64,000 nucleotides of DNA from Actinomycetota bacterium (GCA_003161615.1 PMOB01000007.1:33828-97827); one strand, 5' to 3'; numbered from the stretch's first letter, positions 5,051-16,425 are shown. Translations and numbers: made by a program. Notes: a model not told the origin generated them from the letters alone.

Positions 5051-6414
5051 TGCATCTCCTCCCAGGCCTCGGCAAGAACCTCGCCGAGGATCCCGGTCAT
5101 CTCGTCGAACTGCGCCTGCGTCGCGATGAGCGGTGGCGAGATCTGGATCACGGGGTCGCCGCGGTCGTCCGCGCGGCAGATCAGACCCTTCTCGAACAAC
5201 CGCGGCGAGAGGAAGCCGCGCAGGAGCGTGTCGCACTCCTCGTCGCTGAACGTCTCCCGCGTCTCCTTGTCCTTGACGAGCTCGATCGCGTAGAAGAAGC
5301 CGGCGCCGCGGAGATCGCCGACGATCGGCAGGTCGAGGAGCTGCGCGAGCGTGGCGCGGAAGGCGTCCTCGTTCTCGAGGACGTGCTCGTTGATCCGCTC
5401 CCGCTTCATGATCTCGATGTTCTTGAGCGCGATCGCGCACATCACGGGGTGGCCGCCGAACGTGATGCCGTGCGAGTACATCGCGCCGCTCTCGAGGAAC
5501 GGCTCCATCACCTTGTCGGTCGTGACGACGGCGCCGATGGCCGCGTACGAGGAGGACAGGCCTTTCGCGGACGTGACGATGTCCGGCCGGATGTCGTACC
5601 GCTCGGAGGCGAACCAGTGACCGAGGCGCCCGAAGGCGGTGATCACCTCGTCGGCGGAGAGAAGGATGTCGTAGCGGTCGCAGAGCTCGCGCACTCCGGC
5701 CCAGTAGCCCGCGGGCGGAACGAACGAGCCACCCGCGTTCTGGACGGGCTCCATGTGGACGAGGCAGACGGTTTCAGGATCCATCTCGAGGATCGTCCGC
5801 TCGAGCTCCTCGAGGAGGAATGCGGTGAACTCCGCCTCCGTCTCGCCGTCCGGCCGGTGGTAGCGGTTGGTGTTGCTCACGTGCCGGACCTCCGGCACGA
5901 GCGGCTCGAACGGCGCGCGCAGCGCCTCGATGCCGTTGATCGAGAGCGCGCCCATCGTCGTGCCGTGGTACGCGATGTCGCGGGCGATCGCCTTGTACTT
6001 CTTGCCGGGCTCGAGCCCGTCGCGGACGGAGAAGTACTGCCGGGCGAGCTTCCACGCCGCCTCGACCGCCTCGGAGCCGCCCGAGACGAAGAAGACGCGG
6101 TTCAGATCGCCCGGCGCCAGCGACGCGACCTCCGCAGAGAGCTCGATCGCGCGCGGATGTGCATACGTCCAGTTCGTGTAGAAGGGCAGCTCGCGCATCT
6201 GCTCGTGCGCCGCCTGCCCGATCTCCTCCCCGAAGCCGTAGCCGAGGTTGACGGAGAAGAGGCCCGCGAGCGCGTCGAGGTAGCGCTTGCCCTCTAAGTC
6301 CTCGAGATAGCAGCCGTCGCCGCGGACGATGATCGGCGGCGGGTGCCCGCCCATCTGGGTGAAGTGGAGCCAGAGATGGTCGGCGGCGAGCCGGCGCAGG
6401 TCAGTTGCCGCCAC
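5047..6414 (-). CDS. Class-III (omega/putrescine-type) aminotransferase
   Basis: 455 aa; ...[20 protein letters not shown]..., [18 protein letters not shown] (PLP-lysine region). Confidence 0.9.
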
Positions 6415-6922
6415 GTGTCCCCCAGTCGTAGAGCTGCTTCCTCATCTCGAGGTAGAGAAAGGTCTCGGTGGAGACGACGCCGTCGAGGGCGCGAATCCGG
6501 TTCGTGAGCCCGAGCAGCTCGGCGCGGTCGGAGGTGACGACCTCGACGACGACGTCGAACTGGCCGGCCGTGACGACGACGTAGTCGGCTTCGGGCCAGC
6601 GCGCGATCTCGTCCGCGACAACGCTCGGCGGGCCGGAGGTCTTGACGCCGACGAGCGCCTGCTCGAAGCCGAGGCCGAGCGGGTTCGTGACACCGACGAC
6701 CTGAAGGATCCCCTCGTCGGTCAGGCGTCCGTAGCGCGCGCGCACCGTAGCCTCCGAGACACCCACGCGTGCGGCAATGGCGCGGAACGACTCCCGTCCA
6801 TTTCGCTGCAATGCCTCGATGATCTGGCGGTCGAGGTCGTCGACGCGACGCTGCGGCGCAACCGCCCCCCGCTCCTGGCCTTCTCCTGCCAGCCGGAGTG
6901 AGTGGGCTTCGTCTCTGCGCAT
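6401..6922 (-). CDS. Lrp/AsnC family transcriptional regulator
   Basis: LDRQIIEALQRNGRESFRAIAARVGVSEATVRARYGRL HTH plus an RAM-like C-terminal domain. Start chosen at MRRDEA; 6961 is also possible. Confidence 0.8.
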   Translation of the reverse strand: MRRDEAHSLRLAGEGQERGAVAPQRRVDDLDRQIIEALQRNGRESFRAIAARVGVSEATVRARYGRLTDEGILQVVGVTNPLGLGFEQALVGVKTSGPPSVVADEIARWPEADYVVVTAGQFDVVVEVVTSDRAELLGLTNRIRALDGVVSTETFLYLEMRKQLYDWGTRGGN

Positions 6923-6999
6923 CGCGCGGGATTCGTACCATCCCGCTGCGCATTTCGTCAATCAGGAGGCGTCGAGGCTGCGCGTAGCGCGGCAGCGGC

Positions 7000-7674
7000 T
7001 CAGCGGATCAACTGGAGGCGCAGGGCCTTCGCCACCGCTTCGGTCCGCGTCGACGCGCCGAGCTTGGCCCGAGCGTTGCCGAGATGCGCGCGCACCGTGC
7101 CGGGCGAGATGTGGAGAAGGCGACCGGCGTTCTCGCTCGAGCAACCGTCGGCGAGAAGACGAAGCACATCGCGCTCGCGCTCGGACAGAGAGGGGGCCGG
7201 CTTTGCGGCGACCGCGCCCGACAGGAGCGGATCGACGTACGTGCCGCCCGCGGCGATCGCCTCGACCGCGCGCCGCAGGTCGGCGGGCGGAGTGTCCTTC
7301 TGCACGAAGCCCCGCACGCCGGCGTCCATCGCGTCCGCGAGCGCGGCACGGTCTCCGTAGCCGGTGAAGATGAGCACCCTGGTGCACGGAGAGACGCGCG
7401 AGGCGCCTCTGGCAAGGTCGATGCCGTCGAGCCCAGGCATCCGCAAGCCGACGACCGCAACATCCGGCTGGTGACGCTCGATCTTCGTGAGCGCCTCGTC
7501 GCCGGTGGCCGCAGTGGCCACCACGTGGATCGTCTCCGACTCGAGATAGACGCGGAAGAACTCGACGATCGCCGGATAGGGGTCCGCGACGACGCAGCGC
7601 ACCGTGGCGACCTCCTCCCGGGCCTCTCCGTTGCGAGCCGCCGCGCGAACATCGAGTTCCCTTGCTGTCGTCAC
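7000..7674 (-). CDS. NarL/LuxR-family response regulator with a degenerate receiver (no phospho-acceptor Asp)
   Basis: REC-like N-terminus plus the C-terminal LuxR HTH (LSERERDVLRLLADGCSSENAGRLLHISPGTVRAHLGNARAKLG). The usual ..D-L-R-M-P-G site reads VVGLRMPG. Confidence 0.85.
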   Translation of the reverse strand: MTTARELDVRAAARNGEAREEVATVRCVVADPYPAIVEFFRVYLESETIHVVATAATGDEALTKIERHQPDVAVVGLRMPGLDGIDLARGASRVSPCTRVLIFTGYGDRAALADAMDAGVRGFVQKDTPPADLRRAVEAIAAGGTYVDPLLSGAVAAKPAPSLSERERDVLRLLADGCSSENAGRLLHISPGTVRAHLGNARAKLGASTRTEAVAKALRLQLIR

Positions 7675-7838
7675 GAGTGCATCTCACTGCCCATCGTCCT
7701 CAGTAGGGCGCACCCAATCGGGGAATTCACGGACACACGCCGCGGCGAACCAGCAGCCGGCGATCACGAATGCGCAGGCAGGTCTGGACGTTGTGTGGAT
7801 CCGGGCGGCCGCCGGGGCGGCCGAAACAGGTCTTGCGA

Positions 7839-8150
7839 ATGACCGCCTACCCCGCTCCCGTCCACCTTCCGGCCACCTCGACACCGTCACGGCATAACGC
7901 TGCGACGGTGGCCCATCTCGTGGGCTGGCTCGCAGCCGCCGCGCTGGCCGCCGCAGTCTGGACCGCCGCTCCCTCGCTCACCGGCCAAGGCGCCCAGCAG
8001 CCTGTTACGGCCGGCGGCTTCGGGGGCGGAACCTATCCGGTGCGGCCCGTCGAGTACGCGCCCCAGCTCCCATCCGACAACCGGCTCGTCCAGGTGCGCT
8101 GCGCCGGCCGCGCGAGCAGCTCGCGTTCCTGCTGGGTCTCCCGGCCCTGA
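7839..8150 (+). CDS. Hypothetical small membrane protein (uncertain)
   Basis: Strong G/C bias at codon position 3 in this frame. One hydrophobic helix (VAHLVGWLAAAALAAAVWTAA). No recognisable family. Confidence 0.25.
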   Translation: MTAYPAPVHLPATSTPSRHNAATVAHLVGWLAAAALAAAVWTAAPSLTGQGAQQPVTAGGFGGGTYPVRPVEYAPQLPSDNRLVQVRCAGRASSSRSCWVSRP

Positions 8151-8280
8151 TTCGACAGCGGGCGGTTGATTTACCGCACGAGACGCACGGGGAAGTACGC
8201 GCTCCGCCTGCCCGCCGACGCCGATGCCTCTTCTTGTAACGCCCCTCTCGCAAGGGCGCATCGACTCAAGGAGGTCAGGC

Positions 8281-8871
8281 ATGAGAACCAAAGAGAAGCT
8301 GCTCCTCCCGCTCCTTGCGATCGGGTTGCTCAGCAGGGTATTGGCCCTCGGGATCTTCGGTGTCTTCTCGGCCACCACCCAGAACACGGGCAACGAGATC
8401 GTCTCCGGGACGGTCAGTTTCACGAACAACAGCGCCGGCCAGGCGATGTACAACATCACCGGCGCCAAGCCCGGCCAGACCCTGACGCGCTGCATCAAGG
8501 CGACGTATACGGGCTCGCTCGCGGCAACCGTCAAGCTCTATACGGATTCGACCGCGGGGCCGCTCGCCTCGTACCTCAACGTGACGGTCACGCAGGGCAC
8601 GGACGCGTCGACGAGCTTCCCGAACTGCGGGAGCTTTGTCGCCGACACGAACGGTCAGCTCTACAGCGGCACGCTGCAGAGCTTCGAGCAGACGTACACG
8701 AGCTACTCGAACGGCCTTTCGACCGGTCCTGGGGCCCCGGCCAACAACTGGACGACGGGCAGTGCGGTGGTCTACCAGTTCGTGATCACGCTGCAGTCCG
8801 GAGCCCCGGACTCGGCGCAGGGCACCTCGACGGGCGTCCACGACTTCATCTGGGAGGCGCATGACGCGTAG
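8281..8871 (+). CDS. TasA/camelysin-like secreted protein with a SipW-cognate-type signal peptide (paralog 1)
   Basis: AAGGAGG lies 5 nt before ATG 8281. N-terminus MRTKEKLLLPLLAIGLLSRVLALGIFGVFSATTQNTGNEIVSGTV. Conserved Cys pair (TRCIK / FPNC). Confidence 0.8.
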   Translation: MRTKEKLLLPLLAIGLLSRVLALGIFGVFSATTQNTGNEIVSGTVSFTNNSAGQAMYNITGAKPGQTLTRCIKATYTGSLAATVKLYTDSTAGPLASYLNVTVTQGTDASTSFPNCGSFVADTNGQLYSGTLQSFEQTYTSYSNGLSTGPGAPANNWTTGSAVVYQFVITLQSGAPDSAQGTSTGVHDFIWEAHDA

Positions 8872-8879
8872 CCGACGGC

Positions 8880-8898
8880 CGCCGGTGATCGACCGGCG
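8880..8898 (+). terminator. Hairpin after the first TasA-like gene (possible partial terminator)
   Basis: CGCCGGT-gatcg-ACCGGCG, a 7-bp stem followed by TCTTCTC. Confidence 0.35.
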
Positions 8899-8934
8899 TC
8901 TTCTCGCTACTCCGTCATCGGAAAGGACAGACAG

Positions 8935-9510
8935 ATGAGGACACAGACAAGAATCCTGATCACCATCGCGGTCGTCGGGGTGCTGGGAAGCCTCGCCGCC
9001 TTCGGAGCCTTCGCCTCGTTCAGCGCCACGACCCAGAACGCGGGGAACGAGCTGAGCGCTGGAACCGTCGCGATCGCGAACAACAGTGCCGGCCAGGCGA
9101 TGTTCAGCATCGCCACCGCCGACGACGGCTCGTGGACGCGCTGCATCAAGGTGACCTACGACGGCAGCCTGCCGGCGGACGTGCACCTGTATCTCGGCGG
9201 TACGCCGGGCGCCCTCGCGGCCTACCTGAACGTCAAGATCGAGGAGGGGACCGCATCGAGCTCCGACCCGTTCCCCGAGTGCACGACGTTCACGCCGGTG
9301 AACACGCTGTACGACGGCGCTGTCATCCCCGGTACCGGCAGCTACGACTACGGCCTGCCGACCTCCCCTGGCGGCGTCGCCGGACCATGGACGACGGGCA
9401 GCTCGACCGTCTACCGGATGACGATAACGCTCTCCGATAACGCCCCGAACAGCGCGCAAGGACAGTCGACCGGAATCCTCACCGCCTTCTGGAAAGCCCA
9501 CAATGAATGA
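8935..9510 (+). CDS. TasA/camelysin-like secreted protein (paralog 2)
   Basis: MRTQTRILITIAVVGVLGSLAAFGAFASFSATTQNAGNELSAGTV...; WTRCIKVTY, FPECTTF, NSAQGQSTGILTAFWKAHN. Confidence 0.85.
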   Translation: MRTQTRILITIAVVGVLGSLAAFGAFASFSATTQNAGNELSAGTVAIANNSAGQAMFSIATADDGSWTRCIKVTYDGSLPADVHLYLGGTPGALAAYLNVKIEEGTASSSDPFPECTTFTPVNTLYDGAVIPGTGSYDYGLPTSPGGVAGPWTTGSSTVYRMTITLSDNAPNSAQGQSTGILTAFWKAHNE

Positions 9511-9541
9511 CGGCTCCAGCGGCCTCGAAAGGACGGGAACG

Positions 9542-10120
9542 ATGACGAGATTCACGAAACTCCTGGTCACCACTGCGATCGTCGGGGTGCTGGGAAGCGT
9601 CGCCGCCTTCGGAGCCTTCGCGTCGTTCAGTGCGACGACCCAGAACGCGGGCAACGAGGTGAGCGCCGGCACCGTCGGTCTCTCCAACAACAGCGCGGGG
9701 CAGGCGCTCCTCAGTATCACCGGCGCCACCCCGGGCGGCTCGTGGACGCGCTGCATCAAGGTCACGTACAACGGCACCCTCCCCGCGGACGTGCGCACCT
9801 ATCTCGGTGGCACGACCGGCGCACTCGCCCCCTATCTGAGCCTCAAGATCGAGGAGGGAACGGCGTCGGGCAGCGACGTGTTCCCGCAGTGCACCACCTT
9901 CACGCCGGTCAACACGATCTACGACGGCCCTCTCAGCCCCGCCTACCACGACTACGCCAGCGGCCTGGTGACCTATCCAGGCGGCGTTGCCGGACCGTGG
10001 ACGACGGGCAGCTCGACCGTCTACCGGATCACGGCGAGCCTCTCCGCAAGCGCCCCCAACACCGGACAGGCCCAGTCGACTGGTGTCCTCACCGCCTTCT
10101 GGGAAGCCCACAACCAGTAG
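9542..10120 (+). CDS. TasA/camelysin-like secreted protein (paralog 3)
   Basis: MTRFTKLLVTTAIVGVLGSVAAFGAFASFSATTQNAGNEVSAGTV... Very similar to paralog 2 along its whole length. Confidence 0.85.
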   Translation: MTRFTKLLVTTAIVGVLGSVAAFGAFASFSATTQNAGNEVSAGTVGLSNNSAGQALLSITGATPGGSWTRCIKVTYNGTLPADVRTYLGGTTGALAPYLSLKIEEGTASGSDVFPQCTTFTPVNTIYDGPLSPAYHDYASGLVTYPGGVAGPWTTGSSTVYRITASLSASAPNTGQAQSTGVLTAFWEAHNQ

Positions 10121-10133
10121 AGGCGTGGTCGGG

Positions 10134-10667
10134 ATGCGCTCCATCAGTCGGAAGAACGTCGCTCGCGCTGCCGGCGCGGCCGTCGGCGTCGTCGCCGCAG
10201 TGGCGTTCCTCGTCGCGGCGCGCCCGGCCGCGAGGCTCGCGCCGCTACCGGCGAGCGTCAAGGTCACGCTCGCGCCGCCCGGCACGCTCGCGGTGACGCC
10301 CGCTCCGCCGGCGCCGCTGCTCGACGCCACCCGGCTCAGCCCAGGCGGAGCGCACGCCGTTGCGGCCTTCGCTGTCCGCAACCAGAGCGGGATCACGCTG
10401 CGGATCGGGCTCCGCGGCACTCCCGACTCGCACAGCCTCGACGGGCTCGTCCGTGTCCGGATCACGAGCGGCAAGACGCTCGTCGCCGACACGACGCTGC
10501 AAGGACTGAGGCACGGGACGACCGTGACGTTGCCCATCCGCTCAGGTGCGGAGCGACAGCTGCGGCTCGTCGCCTGGATCCCCGGCGTCGTCAGCAGCGG
10601 CTACGAGGGAAGGATCGTCAAGGTTTCGCTCGCCCTGACGACGCTCACCGCCGGAGCAGCGTCGTGA
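10134..10667 (+). CDS. Membrane-anchored beta-rich accessory protein of the TasA-like operon
   Basis: ATG 10134 lies 13 nt after the previous stop. N-terminal helix AAGAAVGVVAAVAFLVAA, then Val/Thr/Leu-rich beta-type sequence. Its stop overlaps the next start (GTGA). Confidence 0.6.
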   Translation: MRSISRKNVARAAGAAVGVVAAVAFLVAARPAARLAPLPASVKVTLAPPGTLAVTPAPPAPLLDATRLSPGGAHAVAAFAVRNQSGITLRIGLRGTPDSHSLDGLVRVRITSGKTLVADTTLQGLRHGTTVTLPIRSGAERQLRLVAWIPGVVSSGYEGRIVKVSLALTTLTAGAAS

Positions 10668-11215
10668 AGTCGCGCGCGCGCCGCGGGCTGCGGTTCGCCG
10701 CAACTGCGTCGGGATCGGCGATCGTCGCTTTCATCGTCGCGGTGTTCCTCGGCGCCGCAGGCCCGCTGGCCTTCGGCCTCCACTCCTACGTCCTACGAAC
10801 CGGGAGCATGCGGCCGACGATGAACCCGGGCGATGTCGAGGTCGTGCAGTCGATCTCGCCGCTCGCCGCGAGGATCGGGGAGATCGTCGCGTTCCGCGAT
10901 CCGCAGCTGCAGGGCGCGCTCGTCTCCCACAGGGTGCGCGCCGTCGAGCGTGTCGGGAACCGCGTCGACGTGATCACCCAGGGCGATGCCAATACCGGCC
11001 GCGAGCACTGGAGCGTGCCGGCCGGCGGGACGATCGGCCGCGTCGTCTACCGGATCCCGAAGCTCGGCTATGCGGTGGTCTGGCTCGGCTCGGCGCCCGG
11101 GCGCGCCGTGTTCATCATCCTCCCGGCGCTGCTTCTGATGGCTTCGCTTCTCAGACGACTGTGGCGGGAACGCTCGGGTGGCCAGCTGGTGACCTGGCAT
11201 GAACGCCATACGTGA
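10664..11215 (+). CDS. Signal peptidase I, Sec11/archaeal/SipW type (Ser/His)
   Basis: LRTGSMRPTMNPGD (Ser box), GEIVAFRDP...LVSHRVRAV (His box), ITQGDAN, C-terminal TM helix. Confidence 0.85.
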   Translation: MKSRARRGLRFAATASGSAIVAFIVAVFLGAAGPLAFGLHSYVLRTGSMRPTMNPGDVEVVQSISPLAARIGEIVAFRDPQLQGALVSHRVRAVERVGNRVDVITQGDANTGREHWSVPAGGTIGRVVYRIPKLGYAVVWLGSAPGRAVFIILPALLLMASLLRRLWRERSGGQLVTWHERHT

Positions 11216-12224
11216 CCGCTACGGAGGGCGGCGCAAAGTCCCCTTCATCTGGATCGCGATGGTCGCCGCTGCGGCGCTCGGGCTCGTCAGCCTGGGCGCC
11301 TTCGGCAGTGTCTGGGGCGTCTTCAAAGGCACGACGGCGAGCGCCGGCAACCAGGTCGCCGGCGCCTCCGACTGGGTAGCGCCAACGGCCGGGACGCCGA
11401 TCGTCCAGAAAGTCGCAGGGGGGACGCCCGGCTTCATCCGCGCAGGGGGCGCCTACCGCATCTACGTCAACGCCACCGATGCCGGCAATCCGGCGAGTGG
11501 CATCGCGAGCGTGACCGGAAACGCCGGCGCGATCACTTCCGGGCAGACGGCCGCCGCGCTCGCAAGCGGAACCTTCATGGTCTGGGGGCAGAGTTATGGC
11601 TTCGGAAGCTCGAGCCTGACTGCGGGCGCGGCGCTCGCCGCCGGCACGTATGGCTTCTCGCTCACCTCGACCGACAACGCGGGCAACGCGCGCACGCAGA
11701 CCGGCTACACCGTGGTGGTCGACAACACCGCGCCGACCGGATCGGACGTCCAGACGGCGAACGTCGCCGCGGGCACAGACGGCCTGGCCGAGCCCGGGGA
11801 CTCAATCACGTTCACCTTCAGCGAGCCGATAGACCCTGGCTCGATCGTCTCCGGCTGGACCGGCTCGGCGCCTGTGAACGCCGTCGTCCGACTCGGCGAC
11901 GGAGGGACGCACGACGACACCTTGGCCGTCTACAACGCGACGAACACGACCGAGTTCCCGCTCGGATCCGTCGACCTCGGGCGCAACGACTACACGAATA
12001 CCAACATCACGTTCGGGGCGACGGGCACGCCGTCGACGATCGCCCTCAGCGGCAACTCGCTCGTACTCACGCTCGGAACCGAATCCGCCGCGGCTCACAA
12101 AGCCATGGGCACGGGCACGATGAAATGGACGACCTCGCCGCCCGCCGGAGCCACCGACCGCGCCGGCAACCCGCTCACGGCCTCGCTTGTGACCGAGTCC
12201 GGCGCGGCCGTCAAGGCGTTCTGA
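11199..12224 (+). CDS. Ig-like-repeat surface protein carrying the same SipW-type signal motif
   Basis: N-terminus ...IWIAMVAAAALGLVSLGAFGSVWGVFKGTTASAGNQVAG. Body has VVVDNTAPTG and PGDSITFTFSEPIDPGS motifs typical of bacterial Ig-like domains. Overlaps the peptidase gene by 17 nt. Confidence 0.7.
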   Translation: MNAIRDRYGGRRKVPFIWIAMVAAAALGLVSLGAFGSVWGVFKGTTASAGNQVAGASDWVAPTAGTPIVQKVAGGTPGFIRAGGAYRIYVNATDAGNPASGIASVTGNAGAITSGQTAAALASGTFMVWGQSYGFGSSSLTAGAALAAGTYGFSLTSTDNAGNARTQTGYTVVVDNTAPTGSDVQTANVAAGTDGLAEPGDSITFTFSEPIDPGSIVSGWTGSAPVNAVVRLGDGGTHDDTLAVYNATNTTEFPLGSVDLGRNDYTNTNITFGATGTPSTIALSGNSLVLTLGTESAAAHKAMGTGTMKWTTSPPAGATDRAGNPLTASLVTESGAAVKAF

Positions 12225-12247
12225 GCGCGTTTTCGCGCTGCGGAATG

Positions 12248-12276
12248 TTGACGGCAGCCGGTCGCGCGCCTACGCT
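12248..12276 (+). promoter_or_regulatory. Sigma-70-like promoter candidate
   Basis: TTGACG, a 17-nt spacer, then TACGCT. Confidence 0.3.
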
Positions 12277-12414: not shown

Positions 12415-13449
12415 TTGCCTGGATTCGATCTCGGCACACTCGGATGGAACGCCGAGTTCGCCGAACAACTAGAGCCCGGTCTTGTCCCGGGCCGCGTCGC
12501 CGCCGCTCACCGCGGCGCGTTCGACGTCTGGACGGAGGCCGACGCCGTCCGCGCAGGCCTGCCCGGGAGGCTGCTGCACGACCGCATCGATGTCGCGGTA
12601 GGCGACTGGGTCGGCATGGGCGACGGCCTGATCCGCTCAGTCCTGCCGCGCCGCAGCGCGATCGTCCGCAACGCGGCGGGGCTGACCACGTCGGCCCAGA
12701 CACTCGCCGCGAACGTCGACATCGCGTTTGTCGTCTCCTCGCTCGGCCCGGATCTCGAGCCGCGCAGGATCGAGCGCTATCTCGTCACGATCTGGGAGAG
12801 CGGCGCGACACCCGAGATCGTGCTCACGAAAGCCGACCGGCTCGAGGATCCGTGGGAGCTCGTGGCGGAGGTCGAGGCGGTCGCGCTCGGTGTCCCCGTC
12901 CACACGGTCTCGGCGCTCACCGGCCAGGGCTGCGACGCCCTGCGGGCGCGGATCGCCGACAGCACCACCGCCGTTCTCCTCGGCTCGTCGGGCGTCGGCA
13001 AGTCGACCCTCGTCAACCGCTGGCTCGGTTCGGACGTGATGGCGACGAAGGAGACGCGTGAGGATGACGACGAGGGCCGGCACACGACCAGCCACCGGCA
13101 GATGCTCGTGCTGCCGGGCGGCGGGCTCGTCATCGACACGCCGGGGCTGCGCGAGCTACAGCTCTGGGACGTCGGGGAGGCCGGTCTCGACGCGACGTTC
13201 TCCGACGTCGAGGAGCTCGCGGCGAACTGCCGGTTCGCCGACTGTTCGCACGAGCACGAGCCCGACTGCGCGGTGCTCGCTGCCGTCCAGTCCGGCGAGC
13301 TCCCGGAGGAGCGGTTCCACAGCTGGCGCAAGCTCCAGCGCGAACTGCGTGCGATGGCCGTGCGCCACGACGCGCTCTTGCGCAAGGCCGAGGTACGAAA
13401 GTGGAAGTTGCGAGCGCGCGAGGCGCAGGCGAGGACGCGGCTGCGCTAG
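12415..13449 (+). CDS. rsgA: Ribosome small-subunit-dependent GTPase A
   Basis: TTG start after GAAGGAG. LTKADR, GSSGVGKSTLVN, GRHTTSHRQM, DTPGLRE, C-terminal Cys/His zinc motif (FADCSHEHEPDCAV). Confidence 0.9.
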   Translation: MPGFDLGTLGWNAEFAEQLEPGLVPGRVAAAHRGAFDVWTEADAVRAGLPGRLLHDRIDVAVGDWVGMGDGLIRSVLPRRSAIVRNAAGLTTSAQTLAANVDIAFVVSSLGPDLEPRRIERYLVTIWESGATPEIVLTKADRLEDPWELVAEVEAVALGVPVHTVSALTGQGCDALRARIADSTTAVLLGSSGVGKSTLVNRWLGSDVMATKETREDDDEGRHTTSHRQMLVLPGGGLVIDTPGLRELQLWDVGEAGLDATFSDVEELAANCRFADCSHEHEPDCAVLAAVQSGELPEERFHSWRKLQRELRAMAVRHDALLRKAEVRKWKLRAREAQARTRLR

Positions 13450-14106: not shown

Positions 14107-15666
14107 CTAAGGCTTCGGAGCTGCTGCGGCGACGTTCGCGGGCGCATCCGCGTGCTTCGTCGCGAAGTTCTCCGCGAACATCCGGGCCAGATCGCGCGCC
14201 TTGCGGTCGTAGCGCTCCGGATCGGCCCACGTCGAACGCGGGTCGAGCAGAGACTCGTCCACGTCCGGCGCCGTGACGGGAACCTCGAAGCCGAAGACCG
14301 GATCCGTCCGGAACTCGCCTGCGTGGAGGTGGCCGGACAACACCGCGGCGAGCAGCGCGCGCGTCGCCTTGATCGGCATCCGGTGGCCCTCTCCGAACGG
14401 CCCGCCCGTCCAGCCGGTGTTGATCAGCCAGACCGTCGCGCCGTGCTCGGCGAGCTTCTGGCCGAGCAGCTCCGCGTAGACGGTCGGCGGCTGCGGCAGG
14501 AACGGCGCGCCGAAGCACGTCGAGAAGGTCGGCTGCGGCTCGGTCACGCCGAGCTCCGTGCCGGCGAGCTTCGACGTGTAGCCGGAGAGGAAGAAGAAGA
14601 GCGCCTGCTCGCGGCTGAGCCGCGCGATGGGCGGCAGGATCCCAAAGGCGTCGGCGGCGAGGAAGATCACGGAACGGGGATGGCCCGCGCGCTTCGCCGG
14701 GAGCATGTTCGCGATCCGCTCGAGCTTGTACGCGGCGCGCGTGTTCTCCGTCTTCGAATCGTCGTCGAGGTCGAGCTGGCCGCGCTCGTCGACGACGACG
14801 TTCTCGAGCACCGTCCCGAAGCTGTGCACCGCGCCCCAGATCTCCGGCTCGGCCTCGGCCGAAAGCCGAATCGTCTTCGCGTAGCAGCCGCCCTCGAAGT
14901 TGAAGACGCCCTCGTCACCCCAGCCGTGCTCGTCGTCGCCGATCAGCTTCCGCGACGGGTCGGCGGAGAGCGTCGTCTTCCCCGTGCCCGAGAGGCCGAA
15001 GAAGATCGCCACGTCCTTGCCGTCCTCCGAGACGTTGGCCGAGCAGTGCATCGGCATGACGCCCTGGAGCGGAAGCCGGTCGTTCATGACGGTGAAGACG
15101 GACTTCTTGATCTCGCCGCCGTAGAACGTGCCGCCGATCAGGACTTCGCCGCGCGTCGGGTGGAGGCAGACGAAGACGTTCGTGCGCGTGCCGTCCTGCT
15201 CCGGGTCGGCCTCGACCTCGGGCTCGTGGAGGACGAGCACGTCGGGCTCGAAGCCGTCGAGCTCGGCGTCGGCCGGGTCGATGAACATCGTCTTCGCGAA
15301 GAGTGCGTGGTACGGGTGGGTCGTGAGGACGCGGACGGCAAGGCGGTGCTTCGGGTCGGCGCCGCAGAAGGCGTCGATGACGTAGACGTCCGAGCGCTCG
15401 AGGTGCGCGACGACCTTCGCGCGCAAGCCGTCGAAGTTCTCCTCCGAGATCTCGGCGTTGACGTCGCCCCAGCCGATCCGGTCCTCGGAGCCGGGCTCGC
15501 GGACGATGAACTTGTCCTTCGGCGAGCGGCCGGTGAAGCGGCCGGTGTCGACGACGAGCGGCCCCGACTCGGCGAGGACGGCCTCGCCGCGCTCGAGCGC
15601 AGCGGTGTAGAGCTGAGAGGTGCTCGGATTGCGGAGCACGCGCCCCTCGACGCGCAGGCCGTGCAT
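14107..15666 (-). CDS. pckA: Phosphoenolpyruvate carboxykinase (ATP)
   Basis: TGRFTGRSPKDKF, kinase-1a GLSGTGKTTLS, ...YFLSGYTSKLAGTE. Start taken at MHGLRVEG (ATG 15666). Confidence 0.9.
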   Translation of the reverse strand: MHGLRVEGRVLRNPSTSQLYTAALERGEAVLAESGPLVVDTGRFTGRSPKDKFIVREPGSEDRIGWGDVNAEISEENFDGLRAKVVAHLERSDVYVIDAFCGADPKHRLAVRVLTTHPYHALFAKTMFIDPADAELDGFEPDVLVLHEPEVEADPEQDGTRTNVFVCLHPTRGEVLIGGTFYGGEIKKSVFTVMNDRLPLQGVMPMHCSANVSEDGKDVAIFFGLSGTGKTTLSADPSRKLIGDDEHGWGDEGVFNFEGGCYAKTIRLSAEAEPEIWGAVHSFGTVLENVVVDERGQLDLDDDSKTENTRAAYKLERIANMLPAKRAGHPRSVIFLAADAFGILPPIARLSREQALFFFLSGYTSKLAGTELGVTEPQPTFSTCFGAPFLPQPPTVYAELLGQKLAEHGATVWLINTGWTGGPFGEGHRMPIKATRALLAAVLSGHLHAGEFRTDPVFGFEVPVTAPDVDESLLDPRSTWADPERYDRKARDLARMFAENFATKHADAPANVAAAAPKP

Positions 15667-15756
15667 TGCGAGAGCTTCCTCTGGCAGGTCGGCGATCGTC
15701 ACGAGTTCCGCATCGTAATTGCCGGACTTCGGCTCTCGCCGCCGAACCTGGAGACG

Positions 15757-16425
15757 ATGAGCGCTGCCGTACCCGTCGCCAGCCTGAGGCAGCCGCTGCC
15801 CCGCGCGCTGCTCGTCCTCACGTTCACAACCGGGATCGTGGACGCCGTGAGCTTCCTCGGGCTCGGCCATGTCTTCACCGCGAACATGACCGGCAACGTC
15901 GTCCTGCTCGGCTTCGGGATCGCGGGCAGCGGCGGCCTGCCGATCGCGGCGCCGTTCGCCTCGCTCGGCGCCTTCGTCCTCGGCGCGGTCGCGGGCGGAC
16001 GCGTCACGCGGCGCGTCGAGGAGCGGCGGCTCCTGGCGACGGCGCTCGCGGTCGAGATCGCGGTGCTCACTGTGGCGGCTGCCATCGCCGGCGCGACGAC
16101 GATCGCGCCGGGCGCGGCGGCGGCGTATCTCCTCATCATTCTCCTCGCCTTCGCGATGGGGCTCCGCAGCACATGCGTGCGGAAGCTCGGCGTGCCGGAC
16201 CTCTCGACGGTCGTCCTGACGATGACGCTCGTCGGGCTCTCCGCCGACTCGCCGCCGGCGGGCGGCTCGGGCCTCGGCTCGCTGCGGCGGTTCAGCGCCG
16301 TGCTTCTAATGGGAGCGGGCGCACTGGCGGGAGCTCTCTTACTGCGCAAGGACGTCGCCCTCCCGCTCGCGATCGCGGCGGCTCTCGCTCTCCTCACGCG
16401 CCAGGGCTTTCGGGCGGCGCGGTAG
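15757..16425 (+). CDS. YoaK/DUF1275-family membrane protein
   Basis: LLVLTFTTGIVDAVSFLGLGHVFTANMTGNVVLLG is the family signature. Only the last 223 codons of the 757-aa ORF are credible. Confidence 0.75.
   Translation: MSAAVPVASLRQPLPRALLVLTFTTGIVDAVSFLGLGHVFTANMTGNVVLLGFGIAGSGGLPIAAPFASLGAFVLGAVAGGRVTRRVEERRLLATALAVEIAVLTVAAAIAGATTIAPGAAAAYLLIILLAFAMGLRSTCVRKLGVPDLSTVVLTMTLVGLSADSPPAGGSGLGSLRRFSAVLLMGAGALAGALLLRKDVALPLAIAAALALLTRQGFRAAR

Follow-up and report, generated by a model that had tools for sequence, protein, structure and literature searches.

We analysed a window of 64,000 nucleotides (nt) from an Actinomycetota bacterium (GCA_003161615.1, PMOB01000007.1:33828-97827), in which six open reading frames (ORFs), referred to hereafter as g1 to g6, lie on the plus strand at positions 8281–12224. 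It is probable that these six genes constitute a self-contained cassette for an extracellular fibre of the TasA superfamily, that is, a bundling pilus or a biofilm-matrix filament. The gene set, the type of its signal peptidase, a predicted TasA-like fold, a common N-terminal motif and conserved synteny are established here.

The first three genes encode putative TasA-like fibre subunits: g1 (8281–8871, + strand, 196 amino acids), g2 (8935–9510, + strand, 191 amino acids) and g3 (9542–10120, + strand, 192 amino acids). The g2 product is 72% identical to that of g3, and the g1 product 47%. In all three products the N-terminus is basic and leads into a hydrophobic segment of ~20 residues, after which comes the motif [SV]-F-S-A-T-T-Q-N-x-G-N-E-x-x-x-G-T-V, and cleavage is predicted at about G27|V28 in g1 and at A27|S28 in g3 (signal peptide, residues 1–27). 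A genome scan yielded 41 related loci, to which all synteny counts given below refer. A neighbour-joining tree separated the subunits into two orthogroups by their position in the locus, the g1 type preceding the g2/g3 type; g1 grouped with the first-position subunits of two-subunit loci, and g3 was the sister of g2. A separate clade among the related loci has a single subunit gene only. Judged by sequence, g2 and g3 arose recently through tandem duplication within the second orthogroup; the g1 type and the g2/g3 type are probably major and minor subunits.

A database search returned 97 relatives of the subunits, many of them with a precomputed assignment to PF12389 (Peptidase_M73, TasA/camelysin). 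When 44 relatives were scanned singly, 35 matched PF12389 at E ≤ 0.01 (best 7.6e-8), 10 gave weak matches to the NCBIfam TasA model NF046066 and a few gave weak matches to TIGR04088 or TIGR04090. Longer relatives exceed the PF12389 gathering threshold of 22.5 bits (23.7–24.7 bits). The initial annotation, which had been made from the sequence alone, had proposed hidden Markov model (HMM) searches with TasA/camelysin as a check. In these searches the relatives matched, whereas g1–g3 fall short of strict Pfam membership, and what the relatives support is a transitive homology to TasA/camelysin. The NCBIfam scan of g1–g3 yielded no relevant match, the one it gave, to a YhcN signal peptide, being spurious, and g3 alone matched PDB sequences only by chance, to legume lectins. 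A profile built from the 44 members placed TasA (5of1, 8aur) at ranks 1 and 2 among 177,635 PDB sequences, but with an E-value of 0.4. Sequence searching alone was therefore insufficient, and comparisons of folds and of profiles with profiles were needed.

Profile–profile comparison by hhalign of the subunit family with Bacillus subtilis TasA, for which we used a sequence whose residues 36–79 were confirmed against a PDB alignment, gave a probability of 89% and an E-value of 2.2e-6 over 76 columns (columns 5–82). The alignment takes in the signal peptide, the segment after the cleavage site and strands one and two, and pairs A27|A28-F29 of TasA with A27|S28-F29 of g3. The description of g1–g3 as three paralogues with TasA-type N-termini of the kind recognized by SipW was thereby upheld. 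In TasA, residues 28–38 are the donor strand (PMC9674648); residues 28–47 of g3 (nt 9623–9682) correspond to it and are its predicted donor strand. The best-conserved 20-residue stretch of the family falls at residues 26–47 (0.74, against 0.54 for the core), and an HMM built from this donor segment scored about 50 bits with g2. Eight residues are invariant in the family (G43, V45, G65, C71, G106, C117, F120 and W153), among which the pair Cys71/Cys117 suggests a disulfide bond. An exhaustive profile search recovered 4,526 clusters (50% identity) at E ≤ 0.001, and 561 at E ≤ 1e-30.

The fold of the subunits was predicted from an AlphaFold2 (AF2) model of g3, with a mean predicted local distance difference test (pLDDT) score of 81.7 and a predicted template modelling score (pTM) of 0.72. 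The model comprises a signal-peptide helix (residues 3–21), a low-confidence or disordered region (residues 17–36, pLDDT < 50) and a beta-sandwich (residues 47–191). The N-terminal donor segment is disordered in this monomer, which, together with its standing as the best-conserved part of the family, gives indirect support to polymerization by donor-strand complementation. Foldseek comparison with the PDB gave a single match at E ≤ 0.001, chain 8aur_A of the TasA fibre solved by electron cryomicroscopy (cryo-EM), with an E-value of 3.5e-5 and a probability of 1.00; the jelly-roll fold anticipated for the paralogues was thus recovered in the monomer model. Lower-ranked filament matches were CanA (9hdi), the Saci_0406 thread (7pnb) and AbpA (7ueg), all donor-strand-complemented archaeal filaments belonging to the TasA superfamily. 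These matches support the structural placement of g1–g3 in the TasA superfamily, with its jelly-roll or beta-sandwich fold. A further fold match, TLP-1a (9ikj), is an environmental pond fibril from a CryoSeek study and not a named TasA-like protein.

The same model bears on a database name. JGI lists two homologues, P0003 and P0045, as 'predicted ribosomally synthesized peptide with SipW-like signal peptide', which would make the cluster a set of ribosomally synthesized peptide precursors with SipW-like leaders. The confident model of products of ~165 amino acids folded as beta-sandwiches effectively refutes this, no modification enzymes were found in the cassette by Pfam and NCBIfam scans, and the JGI name is merely that of the TIGR04088 signal-peptide model. 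We give this explanation almost no credence.

The g5 gene (10664–11215, + strand, GTG start) encodes a signal peptidase I of 183 amino acids with two transmembrane (TM) segments, one N-terminal and one C-terminal. It passed the archaeal-type signal peptidase I model TIGR02228 (71.2 bits, cut-off 51.85) and did not pass the bacterial LepB-type model TIGR02227 (22.8 bits, cut-off 47); against the SipW equivalog NF046067 it scored 49.7 bits, far under the cut-off of 190. Its best PDB matches were human SEC11A and SEC11C, with GSMRP aligned to GSMEP, SHRV to HRV and GDAN to GDNN. The proposal that the peptidase has the Ser/His chemistry of the Sec11/archaeal/SipW type, and not the Ser/Lys chemistry of LepB, is borne out by these scores. 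Ser48 in the motif GSMRPT, His89 in SHRV and Asp108 in GDAN are kept in all 41 loci. Six residues past the Asp of GDxN, where SEC11A has Asp122, g5 has Glu114 (window 11003–11005) by position counting, HMMER having gapped this loop. Every Solirubrobacterales locus has Glu at the equivalent position, and the loci from Acidimicrobiia and Kineosporia have Asp there, a distribution that points to a lineage-specific Ser-His-Glu variant or to the use of another acidic residue. By the same comparisons, g5 is predicted to be a Ser/His enzyme that works like SipW and is not a SipW orthologue.

The last gene, g6 (11199–12224, + strand), encodes a predicted secreted protein of 341 amino acids in which a subunit-like N-terminal motif precedes immunoglobulin-like (Ig-like) domains of the Big_13 type. 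The stretch related to the subunit motif is VFKGTTASAGNQVAG (residues ~41–56, nt 11319–11366). Its presence in the Ig-like protein had already been remarked on in the initial annotation and was confirmed with the donor-segment HMM, a model of 26 columns built from the subunit N-terminal segment, which matched g6 residues 37–54 with 14 bits (E 7.7e-4 in a set of 440 ORFs from the window); the best unrelated window ORF scored 2.9 bits. The same model matched the N-termini of 84 of the 121 g6-family proteins. In the g6-family alignment the conserved positions of the segment are V-W, then G-N, then A-x-D-W-x-A-P. Matches of g6 itself in Pfam and NCBIfam are weak and Ig-like only (Big_13, Big_5 and an OmpL47-type domain). 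A Big_13 Ig-like domain was found in 29 of 33 family members, and in the PDB the family profile matched the BIg domains of SiiE, a Salmonella adhesin (2yn3), with an E-value of 8.8e-6. By analogy with TapA and TafC, g6 is predicted to be a nucleator or tip adhesin.

Proteins in which the peptidase and a putative tip are joined were also found. In P0122 (512 amino acids) the peptidase and a g6 homologue form a single ORF, and in Kineosporia aurantiaca JCM 3230 a protein of 445 amino acids (L041:6449-7786) consists of a peptidase, a second signal-like helix, the sequence AQFSGTTATS and a Laminin_G_3 domain (E 8.2e-20). Further relatives combine a TasA-like domain with Laminin_G_3 and lie above the PF12389 cut-off. 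The fusions provide support of the Rosetta-stone type for a functional link between peptidase and tip, and raise the possibility that the fused proteins are self-cleaving precursors.

It could be argued that the subunits are secreted and processed in the manner of SipW substrates but act as monomers or cell-wall-associated proteins (coat, matrix or antimicrobial proteins, which is how TasA was originally described, or camelysin-like proteases), with g6 an independent adhesin and the cassette a unit of secretion and processing. The link to TasA is made by fold and N-terminal motif only, the soluble monomer of TasA is itself stable (PMC9674648), and family PF12389 takes its name from a reported metalloprotease activity. 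A metalloprotease is unlikely here, and this reading was rejected, because the subunit family has neither an HExxH motif nor any conserved His. Moreover, the best-conserved segment of the family is the very stretch that serves as donor strand in TasA, the top fold matches are all donor-strand filaments, and g6 copies the donor stretch without an acceptor domain, which would make little sense for unrelated soluble proteins. We consider the monomer explanation rather improbable.

A cassette for fibre production is also consistent with the way in which the genes are kept together. Four gene types occur in the same order, one to three subunits followed by g4, g5 and g6, in 37 of the 41 related loci. 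The loci come from Solirubrobacterales metagenome-assembled genomes, Patulibacter americanus DSM 16676, Thermoleophilaceae, two Acidimicrobiia and Kineosporia. Almost all relatives are Solirubrobacterales (class Thermoleophilia, phylum Actinomycetota), in agreement with the actinobacterial-type genome recognized at the outset, and the bacterium of the window is read as a soil member of this order. In the cultured type strain P. americanus DSM 16676 (L021, NZ_ATUD01000003.1 39947-52528), the locus consists of two subunits, g4, g5 and g6, and its g5/g6 overlap is 17 nt, as in the window. Unlike the conserved cassette, the flanking genes differ among related loci. The region upstream of g1 (window 7675–8280) is unusually long, about 600 nt, and showed no DNA conservation in related loci, even in the closest one (L033). 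Since neither the flanks nor these 600 nt are conserved, the unit behaves as a cassette.

In 26 of the 41 loci the g6 homologue is immediately followed by a further gene in the same direction, the seventh; the window lacks it and has rsgA instead. Its product (for example L016:8727-9620) has ~297 amino acids, a signal peptide and C-terminal RTX calcium-binding repeats (HemolysinCabind, E 1.2e-11), and its N-terminus looks TasA-like (AFVSGAFTLSN...LAPG...GSVTLRNTG). The RTX-repeat gene may have a connection with the TasA-superfamily fibres of AbpX and CanA, which are described as calcium-dependent.

The remaining gene, g4 (10134–10667, + strand), sits between subunits and peptidase in 37 of the 41 loci and encodes a single-pass membrane protein of 177 amino acids from an orphan family. 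Its AF2 model has a TM helix (residues 10–28), a Pro/Ala-rich linker of low confidence (residues ~30–50) and a beta-sandwich (residues 52–172), in keeping with the original description of a TM-anchored, beta-rich protein. Searches of Pfam, NCBIfam and PDB sequences gave zero matches, DUF5305 included, and the donor-segment HMM detected no donor motif. We regard g4, speculatively and by analogy, as a candidate anchor or terminator of the fibre or as a candidate accessory subunit of the peptidase.

The latter role would leave the fibre system in place but make g4 a non-catalytic partner of the Sec11-type peptidase, analogous in architecture to eukaryotic SPC22/23 (SPCS3) or to the DUF5305/TafG proteins of archaeal loci, with the fibre released into the matrix or held in another way. 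Translational coupling of g4 to g5 through their GTGA overlap, and the position of g4 always directly upstream of g5, would fit such a partnership. So would its build, an N-terminal TM segment and a beta-sandwich, which recalls SPCS3, a type II anchor with a beta-sandwich; signal peptidase accessory proteins are also reported to adjoin TasA-superfamily loci (bioRxiv 10.64898/2026.01.04.697558; PMC12337348). However, g4 has no sequence match to DUF5305 or any other family, SPCS3 (in 7p2p) lies outside its top 50 fold matches, and a single TM helix with a jelly roll after it is equally the build of Natrinema TafF1/F2, which are proposed anchors (PMC12337348). On balance we think an accessory role for g4 unlikely, though not far-fetched.

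Assembly of the proposed fibre can be pictured as follows. The products of g1–g3 and g6 are made with Sec-type signal peptides, as seen in their sequences. The peptidase g5, by means of Ser48/His89, Asp108 and Glu114, would cleave before x-F-S-A-T-T, at A27|S28 in g3 as the alignment with A27|A28 of TasA suggests. The exposed N-terminus of ~20 residues would then enter the sandwich of the following subunit as a donor beta-strand, as expected from the fold homology with TasA, and the result would be a non-covalent, chaperone-free polymer. With a donor-like N-terminus, Ig-like domains and no TasA-like acceptor, g6 would donate the first strand at the distal end; a distal or first-strand role has been proposed for TapA (PMC9674648, PMC10151520) and TafC (PMC11821415). 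The g4 protein, which is without a donor motif, might take up the donor strand of the last subunit and hold the fibre at the membrane in the manner of TafF, or might assist the peptidase. A sortase-independent, chaperone/usher-free monoderm pilus assembled tip first, in which g6 provides the first strand, the shaft contains two kinds of TasA-like subunit and g4 is the membrane tether, is a tentative and somewhat doubtful extension of the fibre reading.

Several results weigh against the fibre reading. With PF12389, g1 scored 18.3 bits (E 0.0022) and g3 20.0 bits, and g2 gave no match. The match to the TasA sequence found by hhalign is limited to the N-terminal ~76 residues, and the TM-scores of the g3 model with 8aur_A are modest (0.48/0.41). 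Because Glu stands at the position of the Sec11 catalytic Asp, assignment of the triad in g5 is inexact. No homology of g6 to TapA was found in Pfam, NCBIfam or the profile search of the PDB, in which TapA (6HQC) was unmatched. The g4 model is of moderate confidence (pLDDT 66.6), and its Foldseek search returned nothing at E ≤ 0.001, the best matches being generic beta-sandwiches and some pilins. A reading of g4 as a divergent TasA-like subunit was tried and rejected, hhalign against the subunit family giving a probability of 0.9% and the fold search no significant match.

The six genes are tightly packed. In order from g1 to g6 the intergenic spacings are +63, +31, +13, -4 (GTGA) and -17 nt, exactly the arrangement of co-directional genes, gaps and overlaps that had been read from the sequence. 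Shine-Dalgarno-like sequences precede g1 (AAGGAGG) and both g2 and g3 (GAAAGGA). Independent gene calls on a public contig of 290,835 bp record the identical six products with the same lengths; in databases these are unnamed, and relatives are called 'hypothetical protein', 'signal peptidase' or 'Ig-like domain-containing protein'. The products of g1–g3, g4 and g6 each have a single hydrophobic segment, which is N-terminal. The G+C content is 64–72% across the whole window. A GC-rich stem-loop (12216–12248, + strand; RNAfold -20.0 kcal/mol) lies over the stop codon of g6. It has no U-tract and was not called by a scan for consensus terminators; it may mark the end of the operon as a terminator of the actinobacterial type.

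Upstream of g1, a promoter scan found no sigma-70-like promoters, and an Rfam search of the 600 nt and the operon for riboswitches or other known RNAs gave one sub-threshold chance match only. An ORF at 7770–8150 (126 amino acids) belongs to no family and is probably not a gene. Two regulators are encoded divergently from the cassette, one of the LuxR/NarL response-regulator type (7000–7674, - strand) and one of the AsnC/Lrp type (6401–6961, - strand). Neither is kept beside the cassette in related loci, and with the flanking genes unconserved there, the LuxR-type regulator is not a conserved partner. Ten other loci have a multi-PAS histidine kinase upstream instead (for example L036:2848-5091, - strand). 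Regulation of the cassette seems to be lineage-specific. The downstream neighbours are rsgA (12415–13449, + strand; RsgA_GTPase, E 7.9e-50) and an ORF (14107–15870, - strand) that resembles, by eye, GTP-dependent phosphoenolpyruvate carboxykinase. Housekeeping genes at this position indicate a chromosomal location and not an obvious mobile element.

One of the closest known counterparts is tapA-sipW-tasA of B. subtilis (8AUR; PMC9674648, PMC10151520). There the TasA subunit is a beta-sandwich whose N-terminus, exposed by cleavage, becomes the donor strand, as is predicted here, and the operon likewise encodes its own Ser/His signal peptidase. In both systems the N-terminus of an accessory protein mimics the donor strand of the subunit: that of TapA resembles the TasA donor strand (PMC9674648), and g6 carries the subunit-like stretch described above. 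The differences are considerable. In place of one subunit gene the window has three, in two orthogroups; the subunits are shorter than TasA (~165 amino acids when mature), contain an invariant pair of Cys residues and are without the C-terminal extension of TasA. The g6 protein is Ig-like (Big_13) and has no TapA homology, a TM-anchored beta-sandwich (g4) is added, the order is subunits, g4, peptidase and g6, and g5 does not qualify as a SipW equivalog and shows Glu in the second of the acidic positions.

In layout, the cassette also parallels the haloarchaeal fimbriae exported by the twin-arginine translocation (Tat) pathway, known as Tafi, which have a TafC tip, TafA/E pilins, a TafD peptidase and TafF, in which a TM segment is combined with a jelly roll (PMC11821415, PMC12337348). 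Laminin_G_3 tip domains occur in relatives of the window family, and TafC has a laminin-G-like domain. In contrast to Tafi, the host is a bacterium and the signal peptides are of the Sec and not the Tat type. No DUF5305/TafG or TafB homologue was detected, and g4 can be compared with TafF, and g6 with TafC, by architecture alone. More distant likenesses extend to Bacillus cereus CalY/camelysin and Clostridium perfringens BsaA with SipW, whose family-level sequence signals (PF12389, TIGR04088, TIGR04090) are common to the relatives; the window proteins differ in scoring under the curated cut-offs, in phylum and in accessory genes. The archaeal AbpA/AbpX, CanA and Saci_0406 thread are donor-strand-complemented jelly-roll filaments that are among the top fold matches of g3, but they are far more distant, have no sequence similarity to it and have different accessory sets. 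Some of these archaeal filaments are paired with a TIGR02228 peptidase (AbpX preprint).

TasA homologues in Actinobacteriota had already been noted in surveys based on PF12389 (PMC9245690), and in a recent preprint sequences from Actinomycetota fall within the central cluster of TasA (bioRxiv 10.64898/2026.01.04.697558). The novelty of the locus is therefore smaller than the initial annotation implied: the homologues themselves had been reported, although our literature searches yielded neither experimental nor structural studies of an actinobacterial TasA system. New to our knowledge are the orphan g4 family together with a Big_13 protein that carries a donor mimic, subunits of two orthogroups with an invariant Cys pair, and a peptidase with the Glu variant.

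Fibres of the TasA type, built by donor-strand exchange, are emerging as a way of constructing biofilm matrices that crosses the domains of life, and experimental work on them has so far been confined to Bacillota and a few archaea. The locus described here defines a compact and widely conserved Thermoleophilia version with a different accessory set, for which the cultured carrier P. americanus DSM 16676 offers an experimental entry point. Through it, the nucleation, termination and attachment of such fibres in a monoderm could be tested, as could the fit of the archaeal Tafi model to bacteria. If assembly does proceed tip first, the cassette would be a bacterial counterpart of Tafi and would add a third principle of Gram-positive pilus anchoring to sortase and type IV pili; if g4 is instead an Spc3-like partner of the Sec11-type peptidase, the pair would form a bacterial two-subunit signal peptidase complex. 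The locus would also allow several hundred 'hypothetical proteins' encoded by abundant soil Actinomycetota to be assigned a function.

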